From positions 3,847 to 67,846 of the forward strand of contig CALBHW010000050.1 of the NCBI GenBank assembly GCA_937893125.1: a DNA stretch of 64,000 nt, written 5' to 3'. The notes under the pieces were generated by a model, which was not told the DNA's origin, searched no databases, and was given only the letters and a program-made list of their open reading frames with translations. Shown in pieces: positions 41,323-53,950 of the stretch; the first letter of the stretch is position 1; each line of letters begins with the position of its first letter. The position numbers were made by a program, and so were the translations under genes. Source of the stretch: an uncultured Clostridia bacterium (GTDB lineage Bacteria > Bacillota > Clostridia > Christensenellales > UBA1242).

Positions 41323-41820
41323 ATGTTAAAATTAGAACAATATCGCGACCCGTGGCTAAGTGAAAAAATGGGGGAATTTATAGGCTTTTATCCAAGAGAA
41401 TTTTTTGTTTTTGACAACTTTTCGTCGTTTAAAGTGTGTGTGGACGGTGTTACATATAGCACAGTTGAGCACGCATATCAAGCAACAAAATTTTTAAAGA
41501 GCGCTCCTGAAATAGCAAAGGAAATTATGGATAGTTATTCCGCTCACGACGCACAAAAAATCGCGTACAAAAATAAGGATAAACAGTGTGAAAACTGGGA
41601 CGAAATCAAACTTTCCGTTATGGAAAAGTTGTTAAGACTTAAACTGGCGCAAAATCCATATGTCAAGAAAAAATTGCTCGAAACGGGGGATTATACTATT
41701 TGCGAAGATTCGCCAAAAGATAGTTTTTGGGGAATTGGACTTGACAGAAAAGGGCGAAACGAACTCGGCAAACTTTGGATGAAATTGCGTGAAGAATTAA
41801 AAGGAAAACAAAATGTTTAA
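41323..41820 (+). CDS. NADAR (YbiA/DUF1768) family protein
   Basis: FSNF-like FDNFSSF, VEHAYQATKF and FWGIG motifs. 165 aa. Confidence 0.8.
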   Translation: MLKLEQYRDPWLSEKMGEFIGFYPREFFVFDNFSSFKVCVDGVTYSTVEHAYQATKFLKSAPEIAKEIMDSYSAHDAQKIAYKNKDKQCENWDEIKLSVMEKLLRLKLAQNPYVKKKLLETGDYTICEDSPKDSFWGIGLDRKGRNELGKLWMKLREELKGKQNV

Positions 41821-42310
41821 CGAACTAACTCAAGACGATATTGACAAAATGCAAAAGGAAATCGATTATCGAATCGCGATTTTGCGCCCACGCATTTCGC
41901 AAGAAATTGTCGAAGCAAAAGCCCACGGCGACCTTAGCGAAAATGCCGAATATCACGCAGCGCGAAAGGAAAAGGGCAAGAACGAAGGACGAATTGAATA
42001 TTTGCGCGCGATGATAAAAACGGCAAAAATTATCAAAATAAATAGCAACGCGGACGAAGTTGGAATTTTTGATAAAGTGGAAGTTTTGTTCGAAGAAGAC
42101 GGTACGACGGAAACTATGCAACTCGCGACCACAATGCAAAACGATGTCTCACAAAATATCGTAAGCAAAGAATCACCTTTTGGCAAAGCGGTTATGGGGC
42201 GACACATAGGCGACCGTGTTGAAGTGCGCGTCAGTCCCGATTATTCTTACCACGTTGTCATAAAATCAATAAAGAAAGCCACATCTGGCGTCGACCTAAA
42301 ATTAAGTTGA
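41813..42310 (+). CDS. greA: Transcription elongation factor GreA
   Basis: AKAHGDLSENAEYHAARKE coiled-coil tip and a C-terminal globular domain. Confidence 0.95.
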   Translation: MFNELTQDDIDKMQKEIDYRIAILRPRISQEIVEAKAHGDLSENAEYHAARKEKGKNEGRIEYLRAMIKTAKIIKINSNADEVGIFDKVEVLFEEDGTTETMQLATTMQNDVSQNIVSKESPFGKAVMGRHIGDRVEVRVSPDYSYHVVIKSIKKATSGVDLKLS

Positions 42311-42455
42311 TTTTAAAAATTCATAAATGATTAAAATTTAGGGTTACATAAAAAAACTAAATAAGTAGAAGTGGTAAGATAAAATTAAGAAAAAATAATA
42401 GTCCTTATAAAATTTAAGAGAAAATGTGTTCTGAAAATAAAAAAAACATTAGAAA

Positions 42456-42485
42456 AACACCCCGTTTGGAGACAAACGGGGTGTT
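42456..42485. terminator. Bidirectional terminator at the host/prophage junction
   Basis: 13-bp stem aacaccccgtttg / caaacggggtgtt. The minus-strand side is followed by a T-run. Confidence 0.75.
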
Positions 42486-42494
42486 TATGTTTAT

Positions 42495-42698
42495 CTAATC
42501 TTCTAACCCTAAAAGATAATCAACAGTTACATTAAAATATTTTGATAAAATGATAAGTTGGTTACATCTAATGTCGGATTGATTATTTTCCCACCTACAT
42601 ATAGAAGTAGCACCAATTCCGATATCTTTTGCCATTTTTTGAATAGAAACACCCTTATCTATTCTTAAATCTCTTAATTTTTCTCCAAAATTACTCAT
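42495..42698 (-). CDS. XRE-family HTH protein (67 aa)
   Basis: VSIQKMAKDIGIGATSICRWENN HTH and C-terminal DYLLGLED. Confidence 0.75.
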   Translation of the reverse strand: MSNFGEKLRDLRIDKGVSIQKMAKDIGIGATSICRWENNQSDIRCNQLIILSKYFNVTVDYLLGLED

Positions 42699-42781
42699 TA
42701 TTTTCTCCTATCCAAATTATAGCAGAAGAAAGATGTCTATGTCTTTGAAATCCCTAAAACGGGATGAAATTAAAAAAGTTG

Positions 42782-44350
42782 TTAGAGAATTTTCACTAAC
42801 AACTTTTTAGTTTGGCGGGGCGGAGGCGTTAATGTTTGAACCCCTATAAGCCCCGTTTTTTCAATATCTTTTATTGCCTCATCGGTATCGTCTTTACCAA
42901 TAAATGCCGTTTCTTTACCGCCTTTTATATTGAAATAAATAACAATTCTATCGTCATATAAGTAAAAAGCATTTATCAGGTTATCAATAATTCTTTTTTG
43001 GAAATCCTTATCGTGCGGGTCGCCTTGGATAAACTCTGTAATAAAAGTAACAATATCGTCTTTTGTGTATTGCATACCTTGCTCAATCTCAATTTTAGAT
43101 TGGTGGATAGTTAAATCGTTTAACAATTGTGTTAATTCGGTTATTTTTTTATCAAGTGTTTTAATAACTGTTTGTGATACGCCCGATACCAAAAGATTAA
43201 CTGCATTGTCAATCTCTTTTTGTGTTTTAATGCGCTCGGCTTGTATGCGTTTCAACTCGTCATTACAAGTACGCGACTCATAATATTTAATAACATCGTT
43301 TGCAATAATATTAACACGCCTTGGGTCGCTTAAATATAATTGTGTTTGCTCCACGGCATACCACTCGGCAAATCCTTTATCTTCACGCTTTTTATTACAA
43401 GTGTGTTTTCTACTTGCTTTACAACTATAATAATGATAGGTTTTGCCTGTTTTACTCGTGCCTCCGTCTGCGACCATTGGCGAGCCACAATGCCCACAAT
43501 ATAATTTACCTGTTAATAAATAATCAACCTTGGCGGAATTAGCACCCGAAAAGTATTTATTTTGACTTAATCTTTTTTGTACTTTTTCAAACAATGCGTG
43601 GTCGATAATTTGCGGATATGTGTTTGTGCATAATCGCTCGCCAAAATAAAATGAGCCTGTATATTTTTGATTTGATAATATTCGGTCAAAACTTCGCCCC
43701 TTAAATGGTTTACCATTATATCGATAACCTTTTGAGTTTAAATCGTCGGCAATATCCTTTTTTGATACACCATTAGCATATTGCTCAAACACATATTTAA
43801 CAATTGGTGCTGTTGTTTCGTTTAATTGTACAACTTTTATATTACGGGTGGCGGTTAAGGGTTTTTCAACAACCTTATATCCATAATTTATAAATCCACC
43901 TGTAAAAGTACCATTTGCGACGCTCGTGGTTAAACCTTCACGCACACGCTTTGATAATCTTTTACTATATTTTTCTGCCTCCCACTCTAAAAACATTTGA
44001 TACAATTCGCCTTCTTCACTCTCGGTAATGTTTTGGGTGGCGGAAATAACTTTGACATCATTTTGTGCTAATTGGAAGGTATACATTGTGCTATAATATC
44101 GATTACGGGCAAATCGGTCGAGCATATAAACAATTATATAACTAAAAGAGTTTGTTTTTGCGTCGTCAATCATTTTTTGAAATTGTGGACGATTAACATC
44201 AGTACCTGTTTTATGTTTATCAATATAAGTATTAATTATATTCAAGCGATGTTGTGCTGCATACTCTTTACAAACCCTAATTTGACCCTCAATTGTTTGC
44301 TCATTTTGTCCGTGTGAACTATATCGAGCATATATGACGGCATTTTGCAT
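42782..44350 (-). CDS. Large serine recombinase (phage integrase)
   Basis: N-terminal resolvase catalytic motif AVIYARYSSHGQ, then a recombinase domain and a zinc-ribbon (CGHCG...CKASRKHTC). 522 aa. Confidence 0.9.
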   Translation of the reverse strand: MQNAVIYARYSSHGQNEQTIEGQIRVCKEYAAQHRLNIINTYIDKHKTGTDVNRPQFQKMIDDAKTNSFSYIIVYMLDRFARNRYYSTMYTFQLAQNDVKVISATQNITESEEGELYQMFLEWEAEKYSKRLSKRVREGLTTSVANGTFTGGFINYGYKVVEKPLTATRNIKVVQLNETTAPIVKYVFEQYANGVSKKDIADDLNSKGYRYNGKPFKGRSFDRILSNQKYTGSFYFGERLCTNTYPQIIDHALFEKVQKRLSQNKYFSGANSAKVDYLLTGKLYCGHCGSPMVADGGTSKTGKTYHYYSCKASRKHTCNKKREDKGFAEWYAVEQTQLYLSDPRRVNIIANDVIKYYESRTCNDELKRIQAERIKTQKEIDNAVNLLVSGVSQTVIKTLDKKITELTQLLNDLTIHQSKIEIEQGMQYTKDDIVTFITEFIQGDPHDKDFQKRIIDNLINAFYLYDDRIVIYFNIKGGKETAFIGKDDTDEAIKDIEKTGLIGVQTLTPPPRQTKKLLVKIL

Positions 44351-44478: not shown

Positions 44479-45255
44479 TTATTGTTTGCTAATTATTTGA
44501 ATATTGCAACCAAACTTATTATCGATACCATTTGTTATATCTGCAATTTTGCCAATCAAAACAAAGTCGTTTTCAAACTCCAAAACAAGCATTTTTGCTA
44601 AATCTTTTTTAATACTTCCCAAAATTTGATTTGTACGCGTATTAATTGCTATTGTTGCTTCAGGATATTCTGCCGTTGGTTTATGTGTTATCAATATATC
44701 GTCGCCGATTTGACTGTTTTTAATATTTTCTTGTCTATTGTCAAAAGTTACACCAACCAATTTTGCAAACATAGGCAACTCAACATCAATAAAGTTGTGT
44801 GTAAAAGATGTTTTTATTACAAATTCGTCGTCAACATTTTCATTATCACTAGATGTATTGTTGTCAATATCCTCGTCGGGTACATCTTCGACAATCTCAA
44901 TATCTTTTGCCTCGTCGGCTGTGTAATGTTTAAAAGTACCGTCACCATATCTTACATCAAGACTTCCGTCAGGATTTTTTGCAATCAAAGTACGACCCGT
45001 ACCTTTTGGTATTGGTTGTTTTTTTATCTTTTCTTTTTTTGGTTTTTGTGTGTTATATGCTTTAACGGCAAAAACAGTAAAGAATATACCAACCGCTAAA
45101 AATAAAACACTTAACAATGATTGCCAAGTAGACATATTATCGGTATTATTGCCAATAATAACTCCCATAATAAACATTGGCAACCAAGCACCAACCGCAA
45201 TTAAAACTCTATATTTATTTTTTAAATTATAAAACCACTTCATATAAAACCTCAC
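44479..45255 (-). CDS. Membrane-anchored protein with a C-terminal HIRAN-like domain
   Basis: Two N-terminal TM helices and an acidic linker. The C-terminal ~100 aa (VGVTFDNRQENIKNSQIGDDILITHKP...ILGSIKKDLAKML) follow the HIRAN pattern. Confidence 0.5.
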   Translation of the reverse strand: MRFYMKWFYNLKNKYRVLIAVGAWLPMFIMGVIIGNNTDNMSTWQSLLSVLFLAVGIFFTVFAVKAYNTQKPKKEKIKKQPIPKGTGRTLIAKNPDGSLDVRYGDGTFKHYTADEAKDIEIVEDVPDEDIDNNTSSDNENVDDEFVIKTSFTHNFIDVELPMFAKLVGVTFDNRQENIKNSQIGDDILITHKPTAEYPEATIAINTRTNQILGSIKKDLAKMLVLEFENDFVLIGKIADITNGIDNKFGCNIQIISKQ

Positions 45256-45292: not shown

Positions 45293-45679
45293 TTATTTTT
45301 TTGACTCACTCAAAAGAGCGGTAGCGTAAGACAACACATCGCTTTGTTGTTTTTCGGTTAATGCAGAACAAACCGTAACAATGGCATTTTGTATTGGCGT
45401 TAAATGTTTGCCATTTGATATATTATTGTTTTGATTGTTGTTGCCAATGATACCATTATTAATACCATAATTAACATTATCTTCTAAACCCATTAAATAA
45501 CTAGGCGAAACATTGAAGTAATCGGCAAGTTTTTTAATCGAAGTGCGTTTCATATTCTCAACAGCACCACTCTCATATTTTCTAATTGCCGATTTTTGAA
45601 CGCCAATAATTTTGCCTAATTCCTCTTGCGTTAAGCCCTTTTGTAACCTTAATTGCTTTATAATATCGCTCATTTTCAT
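45293..45679 (-). CDS. cI-like phage repressor (XRE HTH)
   Basis: LTQEELGKIIGVQKSAIRKYESG. Divergent from the early operon. Confidence 0.8.
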   Translation of the reverse strand: MKMSDIIKQLRLQKGLTQEELGKIIGVQKSAIRKYESGAVENMKRTSIKKLADYFNVSPSYLMGLEDNVNYGINNGIIGNNNQNNNISNGKHLTPIQNAIVTVCSALTEKQQSDVLSYATALLSESKK

Positions 45680-46710: not shown

Positions 46711-46900
46711 CCAAACAAACCAAAACAGCACAACAATAAAAGGATATAAAATACATCACATTTTTATCAACCTTGCAAAACCAATAAATAATGTGATTGT
46801 TGATAAAAAGACAAATAAATTGTCTTTATCACTTTTTAACTGTTGTGCTTTTTCTAATTCTTGGAAAAGACATCGCAAGGAGGTTTTGTTAAATGATTAA
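46688..46900 (+). CDS. Doubtful small ORF (low-complexity N-terminus) overlapping a stem-loop-rich stretch
   Basis: GGAGG RBS 9 nt upstream, but the sequence 46727-46849 also folds into nested hairpins. Confidence 0.3.
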   Translation: MTQTNQINQTNQNSTTIKGYKIHHIFINLAKPINNVIVDKKTNKLSLSLFNCCAFSNSWKRHRKEVLLND

Positions 46901-48281
46901 AATTTTAATTGGAGGCTCGCCTTGTACATTTTGGAGTATAGCACAAAAAAATAATAGAGAAATAACCGCAGAGGGTCAAGGTTGGGAGTTGTTTAAAAAC
47001 TATCTTATTGCAAAAGAAAAATTTAAACCAGATATATTTTTATATGAAAATAACAAATCGGCGGCACAGCCTATAAAAGACCAAATTAAACAAGAGTTAA
47101 GTGTTGACGAAATCAATAACCACTATATTGAAATAAATTCGGCTCTTGTTTCTGCACAAAACCGACAAAGGTTTTATGTACATAATTGCGGAAATGTAAA
47201 ACAGCCCGAAGATAGACACATTTATTTAAAAGATATATTACAACCAACACTAATTTTAAATGAAGGTTACGAATTAAAAAACATCAAACGCTTCCCTCAA
47301 TATGGAAATCAGGATAAATCAAGACCAATCACAGCACATTATCCTAATAATTGCGGAGGTTGGTTTGATAGAATTAATGACCCAAATCCAGCAAAGCAAC
47401 AAATTGATATGATTGCCGAGCCTGTAATACTTCAACGACCACACGGATTTAATAAGGGTGGTGTTAAAAAAGAAAAAGCACCAACAATAACAGCAAATGG
47501 TGCATATCAAGAAAATAATTTAATAAGCGAGCCGATAAGACTTGGCGATATAGGAAGTAGTAGCCAAGCACATCGTGTTTATTCTTATCAAGGTAAAAGT
47601 GTAACCATAAATGCAGGTGGCGGAGGTCAAGGTGGTAAAACAGGACTCTATGCCTGCCCTGTTAAACTTGGAGAGATTGGCAAAGGCGGTCAAGGTAATA
47701 GGATTTATTCGCCAAATGGCAAATCGGTTGCACAAACAGCACAAAGTGGAGGCGTTGGCTCAAATACGGGATTGTATTTTTGCCCAATAACCATAACAAG
47801 CGAGGACGGCACAAATATACCAGTTTATACAGTAAAAAATAATTACATTTTTATAAATAACAAAGAGTATCCAATCCCATTAGATGACGGGTATTACATT
47901 ATAAGAAAATTAACCCCTATCGAGTGTGAAAGATTGCAAACAATGCCCGACAATTATACTGAAGGTGTAAGTAATGCACAAAGATACAAAGCACTTGGCA
48001 ATGGTTGGACGGCGGAGGTTGTATTACATATTTTAAACAATGCTTTAAAAGATGTTTCAAAGGACGAGCAAATCGTTGTTTTGTCAATGTATGACGGAAT
48101 TGCAACGGGCCGCTATATTTTAGATAAATTAGGATTTAAAAATGTTACTTATTATGCTTATGAAATTGATAAATATGCAATACAAATCGCTCAAAAAAAC
48201 TATCCTGACATAATACAATGTGGCGACGCTTTTGCGGTACGCAATGAAAATTGGAGGTTAAACAATGAAGGTAACGAATAA
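46893..48281 (+). CDS. DNA (cytosine-5)-methyltransferase with a circularly permuted motif order and a tandem TRD-like duplication
   Basis: Motifs in order: IV GGSPCTFWS, VI FLYENN, VIII SAQNRQRFY, IX RKLTPIECERLQTMPDNY, X LGNGWT, then I LSMYDGIATG, II YAYEID, III QCGD. Confidence 0.85.
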   Translation: MIKILIGGSPCTFWSIAQKNNREITAEGQGWELFKNYLIAKEKFKPDIFLYENNKSAAQPIKDQIKQELSVDEINNHYIEINSALVSAQNRQRFYVHNCGNVKQPEDRHIYLKDILQPTLILNEGYELKNIKRFPQYGNQDKSRPITAHYPNNCGGWFDRINDPNPAKQQIDMIAEPVILQRPHGFNKGGVKKEKAPTITANGAYQENNLISEPIRLGDIGSSSQAHRVYSYQGKSVTINAGGGGQGGKTGLYACPVKLGEIGKGGQGNRIYSPNGKSVAQTAQSGGVGSNTGLYFCPITITSEDGTNIPVYTVKNNYIFINNKEYPIPLDDGYYIIRKLTPIECERLQTMPDNYTEGVSNAQRYKALGNGWTAEVVLHILNNALKDVSKDEQIVVLSMYDGIATGRYILDKLGFKNVTYYAYEIDKYAIQIAQKNYPDIIQCGDAFAVRNENWRLNNEGNE

Positions 48282-50659: not shown

Positions 50660-51550
50660 ATGCACAATTATAGTGTTGACAAGTTTGATAAAGAAGATTT
50701 GTTTTTATTGGAACTAGAAAACCAAGAGAGATTATCGGCATTACAAGATAAACACATTGTCCATTATAGAACAAAGACAATTAAAAGCGGTAAAGTGTTG
50801 GAGTGTGAAGTTTATCCTGTTTGGGACACAAGAGCGTCATTGTCGAGATGTAGAAAGATACGAGAAAGTCGTGAGGCGCAAAAAAGACTTAATCAAAAGA
50901 ATGCTGTTAAAAATCTTGTACGCCTAGTTAATACAAATTTTACCGATAAAGACATTTGGGGTACATTTACATACGAAACATCAAAGTTGCCTAAAAGTGT
51001 CGAGTTGGCACAAAAAGAAATGGTTAAATTTATTAGACGCTTAAAGTATTATGCAGATACTCACAATTTTGAGCCACTTAAATATGTTTATGTTACCGAA
51101 TTTGAAGACGACGAAGAAAAAGGAAAACACCGTGTACACCACCACATTGTTACCAACTTCCCCGATAGAGATATTGCCGAGAAATTATGGTGCAACGGTG
51201 CAAGAAAACAAACAAGAAGATTACAGGCAGACGATAGCGGTTACGAGGGTATGATTAGATATATTCTAAAAGACCCAAGAGGCACAAAGCGATATGTTAC
51301 ATCAAAGAATTTAAACAAGCCAATAATTACTGTTGCCGATTATAAACTTACCCGTAAAAAAGTAAATAAAATTGTTAGAGGCGAGGTTAGTCCATACAAT
51401 GTGTTTGAGGATATGTATCACGACCAATACAAATTAGTTGATTGTTTTAGTAAAACAAGCGAGTATGTATCAGGTGCTTATATCTATGCAAAAATGGTAA
51501 AGCGAAATCAAAAAGGAGGACGATGTCAAAATGAAATATTTAGGGAGTAA
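50660..51550 (+). CDS. HUH-superfamily rolling-circle replication initiator (Rep)
   Basis: Motif 1 WGTFTYE, motif 2 RVHHHIVTN, motif 3 MIRYILKD, in canonical order and spacing. Confidence 0.7.
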   Translation: MHNYSVDKFDKEDLFLLELENQERLSALQDKHIVHYRTKTIKSGKVLECEVYPVWDTRASLSRCRKIRESREAQKRLNQKNAVKNLVRLVNTNFTDKDIWGTFTYETSKLPKSVELAQKEMVKFIRRLKYYADTHNFEPLKYVYVTEFEDDEEKGKHRVHHHIVTNFPDRDIAEKLWCNGARKQTRRLQADDSGYEGMIRYILKDPRGTKRYVTSKNLNKPIITVADYKLTRKKVNKIVRGEVSPYNVFEDMYHDQYKLVDCFSKTSEYVSGAYIYAKMVKRNQKGGRCQNEIFRE

Positions 51551-52268
51551 ATCAAAACTTGCAAAAGAAATTGTATCAATATTGCAAAACTTGATTTATA
51601 AAAACAATATCAAAACATATATAGAGCCGTTTGTTGGTGGTTTTAACATTATCGATAAAATCATTTGCGAAAACAAAATCGGCAACGACATTGACCCTAT
51701 TGTTATAAATCTTGTTGAAACTTGTCGTAACAATCCCCAATTGTTAAATTTAATCGAAACTCCAACAAAAGAGCATTATTACGATGTACGCGACAATGAG
51801 TTTAAATATCAACCTTGGTATCGTGCAGCAATATTATTATTTGCGTCATATAACGCCTGCGTGTATGGTGGTTGTTATGGTGCGATTGCCAACACCAAAG
51901 AAGGCAAAACAAGAAATTATTTTGAAGAAAGCAAAAGTAATTTTATAAATCAATTACCAAATTTAAAAGATATTTTACTTGCTTGTGGCTCGTATGAGTC
52001 AATAATCCCACCGTCAAGACAATGTTTAATATATTGCGACCCGCCTTATGCTGAAGGTGTTGGATATTGTAAAAAGTTTAATACGCAAAGATTTTGGCAA
52101 TGGTGTAGAGATTTATCAAGGCAAGGACATATCGTTGTTATAAGCGAACATAACGCACCCGACGATTTTGTTTGTATTTGGCAACACGAAACATTATCAC
52201 ACTTAAACAACCGAAACAAAATCGCCAAAATAGAAAAATTATTTGTTTTCGGTGGCGCTTATGATTAA
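51531..52268 (+). CDS. DNA adenine methyltransferase (Dam-like, D12 class)
   Basis: N-terminal KYLGSKSKL and catalytic DPPY. Confidence 0.85.
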   Translation: MKYLGSKSKLAKEIVSILQNLIYKNNIKTYIEPFVGGFNIIDKIICENKIGNDIDPIVINLVETCRNNPQLLNLIETPTKEHYYDVRDNEFKYQPWYRAAILLFASYNACVYGGCYGAIANTKEGKTRNYFEESKSNFINQLPNLKDILLACGSYESIIPPSRQCLIYCDPPYAEGVGYCKKFNTQRFWQWCRDLSRQGHIVVISEHNAPDDFVCIWQHETLSHLNNRNKIAKIEKLFVFGGAYD

Positions 52269-52688: not shown

Positions 52689-53261
52689 ATGCCGAAACAA
52701 TCAAAAAAACAAGATATGGAAAAGAAAAAAACAAAACAAAGTCAAAAGGCGACTAAAATAACCAATAAAAAAACAACACAAGAAAAAAAGAAAACAGGTT
52801 TACCAAGTCAGTACGCAAATAAGGTAAAACCTTATTTGGACGACATCGAAAGATATGTGCGTTGTGGAGTTACCGAAGGACAAATTTGTTTATATTATGG
52901 CGTTGGCAAAACTCAATGGGCGCAATATAAAAAAGATAATCCCGAACTAAACGAAACACTTTTAAAAGCAAAAACAGCATTAAAGGTTGATTTAATCAAC
53001 AAAGCGTATCAAGTTGCCATTGGTTATAACTATGAAGAAATCACCACACAAGAGTATAAAGACGACAAAGGTAATATCACAGGAACTAAAACAATAACTT
53101 ATAAACGCCACGCAAAAGCCGACGCAGGTATGTTGCAATTTTTATTAGTTAATCGTTTTAGTGAAGAATTTGCACGCGACCCACAAATGGTGGAATTGCG
53201 CAAAAAAGCGTTAGAATTACAACAATCAGGCAAATTGCCATTTGATACGGAAGGTATTTGA
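52689..53261 (+). CDS. Basic DNA-binding phage protein (terminase-small-subunit-like HTH)
   Basis: K-rich N-terminus, then CGVTEGQICLYYGVGKTQWAQYKK. AAGGAGG RBS. Confidence 0.5.
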   Translation: MPKQSKKQDMEKKKTKQSQKATKITNKKTTQEKKKTGLPSQYANKVKPYLDDIERYVRCGVTEGQICLYYGVGKTQWAQYKKDNPELNETLLKAKTALKVDLINKAYQVAIGYNYEEITTQEYKDDKGNITGTKTITYKRHAKADAGMLQFLLVNRFSEEFARDPQMVELRKKALELQQSGKLPFDTEGI

Positions 53262-53263
53262 TT

Positions 53264-53950
53264 ATGGCGCTAGACCCAATACACGCATTTTATTGTCGTA
53301 AAGATTATTTAACATTGGCGTTGCAATGCAAAATTAAGAGCGGTGGTAAGTGTGCAGAGTGTGGCGAGATATTTGATATTGACGAATTGCGACCACATCA
53401 TATTATTGAATTAACACTTGATAATATTGACGATGTAAACATTACGCTAAACCCCGACAATATCGAGGTGTTGTGTCATAATTGCCATAATAAGCGCCAC
53501 GCAAGATTTGGCAATGTTGTCGGACAAAAACATATTTATTTAGTCTATGGCTCGCCTTGTGCAGGTAAAAACCTTTATGTTGAAACCGTAGCAACAAGAA
53601 ATGATTTAATTATTGACCTAGATAAAATACATAAAGCAATTTGTATTTGTGGTATGTATGATAAACCCGACGCAACAAAGCGCGTTGCATTTGATGTTAG
53701 AGATTATTTATTAAATGTGGCAAGATTGGCGGGAACTCGTCGCCGTTGGCAAAACGCATATATAATACAAACCTGCCCCGAAAAGTACGACCGCGACGAA
53801 ATGGTTAAATTGTATGGTTGTGAACTTATCCATATTGACACAACAAAAGAAGAATGTGTTGCTAATTGCAAAAGAGATATAAAAAGACAAGCAGTACAGG
53901 ACGCAGTACTTGGTTGGATTGATGATTATTGGTCGCGTTACAATGAATAA
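53264..53950 (+). CDS. HNH endonuclease fused to a P-loop NTPase/kinase-like domain
   Basis: CAECG...HHIIEL...N...CHNCHNKRH, then Walker A GSPCAGKN. Confidence 0.75.
   Translation: MALDPIHAFYCRKDYLTLALQCKIKSGGKCAECGEIFDIDELRPHHIIELTLDNIDDVNITLNPDNIEVLCHNCHNKRHARFGNVVGQKHIYLVYGSPCAGKNLYVETVATRNDLIIDLDKIHKAICICGMYDKPDATKRVAFDVRDYLLNVARLAGTRRRWQNAYIIQTCPEKYDRDEMVKLYGCELIHIDTTKEECVANCKRDIKRQAVQDAVLGWIDDYWSRYNE

Follow-up and report, generated by a model that had tools for sequence, protein, structure and literature searches.

Circular permutation is a textbook route by which classes of DNA methyltransferases are thought to have diverged. Among the enzymes that methylate cytosine at C5 in DNA (C5-MTases), the plant DRM enzymes carry motifs VI–X followed by I–V, and to our knowledge the DRM2 structures are the only solved structures with a direct junction between motif X and motif I. 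Orphan C5-MTases of Bacillus phages were reportedly found by Wilke et al. in 1988 to contain, between motifs VIII and IX, several contiguous target recognition domain (TRD) modules, each approximately 40 aa long, which can be combined in different orders. A 2018 scan of 20,677 REBASE entries identified the M.BssHII type as the only natural permuted C5-MTases, and its authors considered it surprising that the most active laboratory topology, with the break between motifs II and III, was absent from nature (PMC5944983). The enzymes of this 'Type H' (M.BssHII, M.Alw26I, M2.Eco31I, M.Esp3I and M2.BsaI) also have a direct X-to-I junction; their chains start within the variable region, and the TRD and motifs IX–X precede motifs I–VIII (PMC5944983). 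Here we describe a prophage gene (46893–48281, + strand) in a 64,000-nucleotide stretch of an uncultured Clostridia bacterium (contig CALBHW010000050.1, positions 3,847 to 67,846; the window), the product of which is broken between motifs III and IV, with motif VIII ahead of the TRDs, and thus falls outside Type H. The natural C5-MTase permutants catalogued in the literature do not include this topology. Judging from its sequence and that of its relatives, the gene probably encodes a functional orphan phage C5-MTase with a circularly permuted chain.

The coding sequence was complete (462 aa and a stop codon). A strong Shine–Dalgarno sequence (AAGGAGG, 46877–46883, + strand, by direct reading) precedes the ATG by 9 nt, in support of a genuine start at motif IV. 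The stop codon overlaps the next small open reading frame (ORF) by 17 nt. The motifs followed in the order IV-V-VI-VII-VIII, variable region, IX-X and I-II-III, and not in the linear order I to X that is canonical for the C5-MTase family. The set of C5 motifs was complete (P10-C11, E52-N53, Q89/R91/R93, G369-N370, Y400-D401-G402...G406, E424 and D445). Based on the alignment with M.HhaI, the catalytic block (residues 1–100; 46893–47192) comprised motifs IV (GGSPC, Cys11), V, VI (YENN, Glu52), VII and VIII (QNRQR, Arg91 and Arg93). It was followed by a variable region (residues 101–214; 47193–47534), which differs in length and content among homologues (alignment A2), and by two TRD units, R1 (residues 215–256, IRLGDIGSSSQAHRVYSYQGKSVTINAGGGGQGGKTGLYACP; 47535–47660) and R2 (residues 257–298, VKLGEIGKGGQGNRIYSPNGKSVAQTAQSGGVGSNTGLYFCP; 47661–47786). 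A small beta-strand segment before motif IX (residues 299–329, PVYxVKNGxIxIxxKxYPI; 47787–47879) was conserved in alignments A1 and A2. Residues 330–388 (47880–48056) contained motif IX (IRKLTPIECERLQ), motif X (GNGWTAEVV helix) and an X-to-I linker of approximately 10 aa, as aligned with HhaI. The S-adenosylmethionine (SAM)-binding block (residues 389–455; 48057–48257), aligned with DNMT3A and HhaI, contained motifs I (LSMYDGIATG), II (YAYEID, Glu424) and III (QCGD, Asp445). The C-terminal tail of 7 aa and the stop codon (48258–48281) corresponded to the start of the canonical III-to-IV linker in comparison with the canonical homologue P0243 ('...CGDVTTADFTQYKGFDLVIGGSPC'). All these segments are on the + strand.

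A profile search, proposed in a preliminary description of this sequence, gave a match to PF00145 with E=2e-22 (80.5 bits; cut-off 22), in which residues 2–383 were aligned with profile positions 62–321 of 324. The chain therefore begins at approximately motif IV. The score for TIGR00675 (69.8 bits) was under the cut-off of 100.65, as expected for a permuted chain. In phmmer searches against Protein Data Bank (PDB) sequences, residues 4–96 matched M.HhaI 74–168 (motifs IV–VIII), residues 256–296 matched M.HhaI 226–266 (TRD) and residues 337–383 matched M.HhaI 271–317 (motifs IX–X). For residues 390–450, the catalytic domains of DNMT3A/B/C were the best matches (DNMT3A 3–64, motifs I–III), in agreement with the DNMT3-like motif I noticed in the preliminary description; the SAM-binding block also matched HhaI 14–55. 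A second copy of residues 1–100 or 385–462 was searched for in the window with tblastn, which returned only self matches in the entire 64 kb; the preliminary description had seen no motif I–III sequence upstream in any frame.

M.HhaI (target GCGC; PDB 1MHT) thus has the same fold and catalytic motifs, and its TRD core (residues 227–267) corresponds to each of the 42-aa repeats, but it differs in its canonical motif order, its single TRD and its role in a restriction-modification system. Residues 339–445 were collinear with plant DRM2 173–279 (motifs IX-X-I-II). The plant enzymes (DRM2, ntDRM) are also permuted with an X-to-I junction, but they are eukaryotic and RNA-directed, with additional N-terminal domains and no TRD array, whereas the prophage enzyme is single-domain and has motifs IV and V at its N-terminus. 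The collinearity reflects a shared X-to-I junction in different permutations, and the resemblance looks convergent. The beta-class amino (N6A/N4C) methyltransferases share the order of catalytic motif IV block, TRD and SAM-binding motif I block (PMC7544214), but have a DPPY-type motif IV and methylate exocyclic nitrogens, whereas the Pro-Cys nucleophile and the full set of C5 motifs are present in the prophage enzyme. Since the chemistry motifs are of the C5 type, the likeness to the beta order is topological only.

The identical 462-aa protein was found on a 111-kb metagenome contig in ENA (ERZ27300227), from which the window evidently derives, and on an independent Logan assembly (ERR8981363). 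The best 120 homologues among 5.8 billion clustered proteins all covered approximately 99% of the query. Chance and misassembly are thereby excluded as sources of the permuted ORF. These 120 began with M-IK-(L/I)L(I/L)GGSPCT and ended a few residues after motif III (family median of the tail, 4 aa), and more than 100 N-termini had the sequence MIK[LI]LIGGSPCT. At least 185 full-length permuted homologues, beginning with M-IK-LLIGGSPC and ending shortly after motif III, were recovered. When the IX-X-I-II-III segment was searched alone against 1.84 billion cluster representatives, 215 matches with E<=1e-30 were obtained. The best 150 of these included 67 full-length permuted proteins, 48 fragments sharing the junction and the C-terminal end, 19 relatives in canonical order and 15 proteins with the junction that continued past motif III. 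P10-C11, E52-N53, Q89/R91/R93, G369-N370, D401-G402-G406, E424, D426, G444 and D445 were invariant across 64 homologues, and the catalytic and SAM-binding residues were likewise invariant in a second alignment of 28 homologues. The methyltransferase is therefore a member of a large, apparently monophyletic family. Reference genomes with members were mainly metagenome-assembled genomes of gut Clostridia, in addition to Butyricicoccus pullicaecorum and Criibacterium bergeronii. Database entries label the members 'DNA methylase', 'DNMT3A' or 'hypothetical protein', and such generic labels expose an annotation gap.

Among 50,697 deposited phage genomes, a junction-only search retrieved six records with a contiguous X-to-I junction. 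Three of them, Phage nd4 and the gut 'Bacteriophage sp.' records MT836645 and MT835543, carry genuine-looking permuted genes. In Psychrobacillus phage Perkons, and probably also in Pseudoalteromonas phage H40/1, the junction match spans two adjacent annotated coding sequences. The majority of the relatives in phages have the canonical order (phi92-like coliphages, ICP1, Bacteroides and Mycobacterium phages). Matches in several pieces obtained with tblastn in ICP1 and in Pelagibacter, Proteus and E. coli phages were rejected as permuted members by the junction-only search.

The closest canonical relatives (P0243, P0221 and P0236) have a motif I of the type 'SLFDGISCG' and shared 41% identity with the prophage enzyme over motifs IV–X and 53–65% over motifs I–III. 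They have in common with it the DNMT3-like motif I, motif IV (GGSPC), the HhaI-type TRD unit and the segment before motif IX, but their motifs run in normal order from I to X and they fall outside the permuted clade. In P0243 (438 aa), residues 66–436 were aligned with query residues 4–385 in a single high-scoring segment pair (41% identity) and residues 3–53 with query residues 396–446 (53% identity), and the break lies within the linker of 13 residues that connects III to IV in P0243. The III/IV cut read in the preliminary description is thus a trait of the family, whose alignment to canonical relatives is that of a clean permutation.

Blocks A (IV–VIII), B (IX–X) and C (I–III) were mapped on 268 retrieved proteins. 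The great majority had the permuted arrangement A-(TRD)n-B-C, and approximately 14 the canonical C-A-TRD-B. Tandem double enzymes were P0184 (962 aa; C-A-t-B-C-A-B), P0151 (618 aa; C-A-B-C-A-B) and P0036 (787 aa), in which a permuted copy is fused to a canonical copy and followed by a long acidic, coiled-coil-like tail. The P0184 cluster was represented in both Logan (62-kb contig) and ENA (212-kb contig). P0183 and P0192 are N-terminally truncated fusions (B-C-A-B). Phage Perkons (L046, MT325768.1, 64386–67339) carries three tandem C5-cytosine methylase genes on one strand, separated by gaps of 63 and 44 nt; the tblastn match crosses a gap because the first two genes share a frame. Together, the tandem genes, fusions and truncated fusions form the series postulated by the model of permutation by duplication. 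In the laboratory, the series was reproduced with M.HaeIII, M.MpeI and M.SssI: permutants starting between II and III or between III and IV were active, M.HaeIII permutants of the III/IV type among them, as were tandem-duplicated fusions of M.MpeI and M.SssI and partly truncated fusions (PMC5944983). Those permutants are artificial, and the natural series of fusions mirrors these intermediates.

In a neighbour-joining tree of the re-ordered conserved blocks, all permuted proteins were placed in one clade without canonical members, with a conserved-block identity of 75% within the clade versus 49% to other proteins. This suggests a single permutation event. The permuted gene would have arisen by in-frame fusion of two tandem methyltransferase copies and subsequent trimming at both ends, apparently once, and the family would then have diversified among the phages and prophages that gut Firmicutes harbour. 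The preliminary description had considered that the C-terminal I–III block might be the 5' remnant of a second, truncated gene. As to its descent this is probably right, with the block derived from the 5' portion of a second copy in tandem; in the present enzyme, however, it is integral and conserved. With its extant canonical relatives and its extant tandem and half-trimmed fusions, this large family of natural enzymes with the III/IV break offers a natural test bed for permutation by duplication.

The core of an AlphaFold2 (AF2) model of the monomer had a predicted local distance difference test score (pLDDT) of approximately 80–97, and the predicted template modelling score (pTM) was 0.68. 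The elements followed in the order beta4, alphaD, beta5, alphaE, beta6 and beta7, then motif IX, helix X, beta1, alphaA, beta2, alphaB and beta3. The strands of the catalytic block (residues 2–8, 48–54, 77–82 and 92–97) had a pLDDT of approximately 87–97, those within residues 300–327, before motif IX, approximately 69–85, and those of the SAM-binding block (beta1, 394–400; beta2, 418–423; beta3, 441–444) 81–96. Helices in the IX–X segment were modelled at residues 342–348, 361–369 and 374–385. The top Foldseek matches of the model were HhaI, DNMT3A/B/C and DRM. A second run, for which 28 homologues with two units were aligned and curated, gave a poorer model (mean pLDDT 54.7; <50 for residues 117–303). 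Structure prediction, which the preliminary description had suggested as a check, thus recovered the core elements in the permuted order but left the TRD repeats unplaced. The fold is probably the usual seven-stranded methyltransferase fold, in which only the chain ends are shifted, into the III–IV linker. The chain begins with beta4 (motif IV, Cys11) and continues with V–VIII, a variable region ending in two head-to-tail HhaI-type cassettes, and IX–X. The linker of approximately 10 residues then joins helix X directly to the SAM-binding half (I–III, beta1–beta3), which is N-terminal in ordinary enzymes.

R1 and R2 were identical at 22 of 42 aa and 69 of 126 nt. Both matched a profile of 22 unit sequences from end to end (77.9 and 79.4 bits, respectively), and the query contained exactly two bona fide units. 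Against the PDB, this profile had a single match, M.HhaI 227–267, again from end to end (E=3e-10). In the HhaI structure papers, that segment is reported to hold recognition Loops 1 (233–240) and 2 (250–257). Loop 1 of R2 (GKGGQGNRIYS) differed from HhaI 231–241 (GKGGQGERIYS) in one residue. By this profile match each repeat is a complete M.HhaI-type TRD core, and the preliminary reading of the repeats as TRD units was upheld. Ahead of R1, KAPTITANG (residues 195–203) was a marginal TRD-like remnant (approximately 1 bit against the unit profile, equalled in 6 of 500 shuffles), and it was all that a search for further degenerate modules 5' of the repeats revealed.

Across the family, the unit types were discrete and strongly conserved. 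Type R1 followed the pattern ...SxSQAHRVYS..GKSVTINAGGGGQGGKTGLY and type R2 the pattern ...GxGGQGNRIYS..GKSVSQTATSGGIGSNTGLY, and there were many further types, some with a longer Loop 1. R2 shared 70–98% identity among homologues, with Q267, R270, Y272, S273, G276 and K277 invariant. In the 185 full-length permuted proteins, R1 alone was the commonest architecture (85), followed by another type (x) alone (35); no unit was detected in 20. The arrangement R1-R2 occurred in 13 proteins, x-x and x-R2 in six each, R1-x in five, R1-R2-x and x-R1 in four each, and R2 alone in three (P0023, P0056 and P0104). R2-R1 was found in two (P0008 and P0029), x-R1-R2 in one, and the largest array, of five units, in P0147 (532 aa). 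In most two-unit arrays, the units abutted head to tail without a spacer. R1 and R2 each occur singly, either before or after one another, and beside further types, which supports independent cassettes. The comparative support for each cassette working on its own is strong, albeit short of proof. Each would function on its own with the common catalytic core, in the manner of the multispecific C5-MTases of Bacillus phages (M.SPRI, M.Phi3TI, M.SPBetaI, M.Rho11sI and M.H2I), so that two different target sequences would be covered. The methyltransferase is therefore probably bispecific, with one target per cassette. The prophage enzyme resembles these phage enzymes in the contiguous placement of its TRD modules between VIII and IX, as two abutting 42-aa cores, but differs from them in its motif order, theirs being canonical, and a tblastn search of its repeat block detected no similarity to Bacillus-phage records.

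Since both cassettes keep the Loop-1 Gln and Arg of HhaI, both targets probably share a 5'-GC core and differ in their 3' part. Site avoidance was compared between the host part (1–42600) and the prophage part (42601–64000) of the window. CCGG was absent from the whole 64 kb (Markov expectation: host part, 42; phage part, 25). The prophage part contained no ACGT, AGCT, CATG or GATC and one GGCC, with 39–54 expected for each. GCGC, CGCG, TGCA, GTAC and CTAG were not avoided in the window, and the prophage part kept 35 GCGC sites. GCNGC was depleted 5-fold in the host part (11 observed vs 56 expected), and 28 were observed vs 49 expected in the prophage part. In a phage from which 4-bp palindromes have otherwise been purged, the retention of GCGC and GCNGC is a hint only on specificity.

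The two repeats that the preliminary description had pointed out are one instance of a combinatorial cassette system, which may be shuffled against the host restriction repertoire in gut phages. HhaI-type TRDs of this cassette-like kind provide, on a core that stays constant, a compact natural library of modules for DNA recognition, which could aid the prediction and engineering of 5-methylcytosine specificities and the reading of restriction arms races between gut phages and their hosts. We give roughly even odds to the wider proposition that these enzymes form an undescribed natural topological class of C5-MTases with the beta order, which had a single origin via tandem duplication, fusion and trimming, has extant intermediates, and carries one to five shuffled 42-aa cassettes that match host restriction. 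Peisajovich et al. 2006 reportedly found a 'new class' in natural genomes; outside that study and current REBASE, our literature search retrieved no published description of this family, of the IV–X/I–III topology or of a DNMT3-like phage clade, and an earlier mention is possible.

Several observations weigh against a functional, bispecific enzyme with this history. Residues 181–298, which include both TRDs, had a pLDDT <50 in both AF2 runs, so the repeats were not placed. A tblastn search of the repeat block against the 50,697 phage records, with the low-complexity filter on, matched three gut-phage records and no Bacillus phage. Since similarity to Bacillus-phage TRDs was not detectable, multispecificity rests on analogy. 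The tree that suggests a single origin is crude (identity distances, midpoint root). Site avoidance over 30 related loci grouped by unit type did not separate specificities cleanly, and a literature search found no experimental characterisation of any family member. Finally, R2 has Ala-Gln where HhaI and R1 carry a conserved Thr-Leu/Ile dipeptide, and it could therefore be a weakened or pseudo-TRD.

This last point leads to a monospecific enzyme, in which one cassette reads the DNA and the second serves as a spacer or is a pseudo-TRD, or in which both together read one longer or bipartite site. Inactive 'pseudo' TRDs were reportedly found in Bacillus-phage enzymes by the Trautner laboratory, and the high frequency of R1 alone compared with the rarity of R2 alone (85 and 3 of 185) points in the same direction. 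However, R2 is conserved as strongly as R1, its Loop 1 nearly matches that of the active M.HhaI, and its occurrence alone, before R1 or with other partners is hard to square with a spacer. We regard monospecificity as possible but rather doubtful, and bispecificity as the better account of the two cassettes.

A single self-contained chain was also weighed against an obligate homodimer with swapped domains, in which the I–III lobe of one subunit would complete the IV–X half of another. The AF2 model was of a monomer only, the structures of the nearest matches, DNMT3 and DRM2, are of oligomers or complexes according to their PDB entry titles, and the beta-class amino-methyltransferases, with the same linear order IV...TRD...I, are reportedly dimeric (PMC7544214). 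However, AF2 set the I–III lobe confidently inside one chain, and an X-to-I linker as short as this one would be expected were helix X and beta1 packed side by side within one chain. Engineered C5-MTase permutants are, moreover, active as single chains (PMC5944983). An obligate dimer is therefore unlikely.

A C5-MTase fold serving another chemistry or role, such as the first step of cytosine hypermodification (from 5-methylcytosine to 5-hydroxymethylcytosine and onward) or a transfer of groups other than methyl, would have precedents, as two reports describe phage C5-MTase homologues that feed TET-like hypermodification and a C5-carboxymethyltransferase (PMC8256090, PMC12783734). The active-site motifs of the prophage enzyme are standard, however, and no dioxygenase, glycosyltransferase or CmoA-like match was found with Pfam and PHROGs in the larger neighbouring ORFs or in the precomputed Pfam matches of the L043 genes, which makes this reading very improbable. 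Close to refuted is an inactive relic, be it a rearranged or truncated remnant or an assembly or frameshift artefact, since, although the I–III block at first sight resembles the 5' end of a second gene and phages do carry tandem C5-MTase genes, more than 100 homologues share both termini, the catalytic and SAM-binding residues are all invariant, two independent assemblies hold the identical protein, tblastn of both halves found no other C5-MTase fragment in the window, and AF2 modelled the Rossmann core completely and confidently.

The gene of the permuted C5-MTase forms part of the early operon, directed rightward, of a serine-integrase prophage. A large serine recombinase (42782–44350, − strand; phrog_95, 3e-95), which is the integrase, marks the left prophage end; Pfam matches to Resolvase, Recombinase and Zn_ribbon_recom were found on the same gene in L043. 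A cI-like helix-turn-helix (HTH) repressor (45293–45679, − strand; phrog_8, phrog_4 and phrog_3) is divergent from the early operon, in which a cro-like ORF, small ORFs, the permuted methyltransferase, YopX, an HTH protein and a Rep_ORF2/G2P-type initiator follow, and then a D12-class adenine methyltransferase, terminase, portal, protease and capsid. The methyltransferase was called an orphan in the preliminary description, and its neighbours agree with this: they are small ORFs of unknown function, YopX, the HTH protein and Rep, and the Pfam and PHROGs scans of the neighbours revealed no nuclease, although a novel nuclease among the small ORFs is possible. The sole HNH domain nearby belongs to a terminase-associated protein 5 kb away. 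The enzyme would be expressed from the early lytic operon, and methylation of the phage DNA would protect it against host restriction enzymes. Anti-restriction self-protection is thus the natural reading of its role, given the phage context and established phage biology.

A second, unrelated methyltransferase of the D12 class (N6-adenine; 51531–52268, + strand; PF02086, 1.8e-18; phrog_56) overlaps the end of the replication-initiator gene. Its target is probably other than GATC, because the prophage part holds no GATC site. The replication protein itself (50660–51550, + strand; REP_ORF2-G2P, PF23343; phrog_3584) is a rolling-circle-type initiator in an otherwise tailed-temperate-looking phage. 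Between the small and large terminase genes, a 230-aa protein (53258–53950, + strand) carries an HNH nuclease domain together with an AAA_33 kinase-like match that is weak and falls short of the Pfam cut-off. A 258-aa ORF between the integrase and the repressor (44479–45255, − strand) carries hydrophobic segments at its N-terminus and matched nothing in Pfam or PHROGs; this position is one typically occupied by a 'moron' gene expressed in lysogeny or a superinfection-exclusion gene. The host genes directly to the left of the prophage (41323–42310, + strand) encode a NADAR-domain protein and GreA, and the attachment site of the prophage is predicted to lie within 42310–42782.

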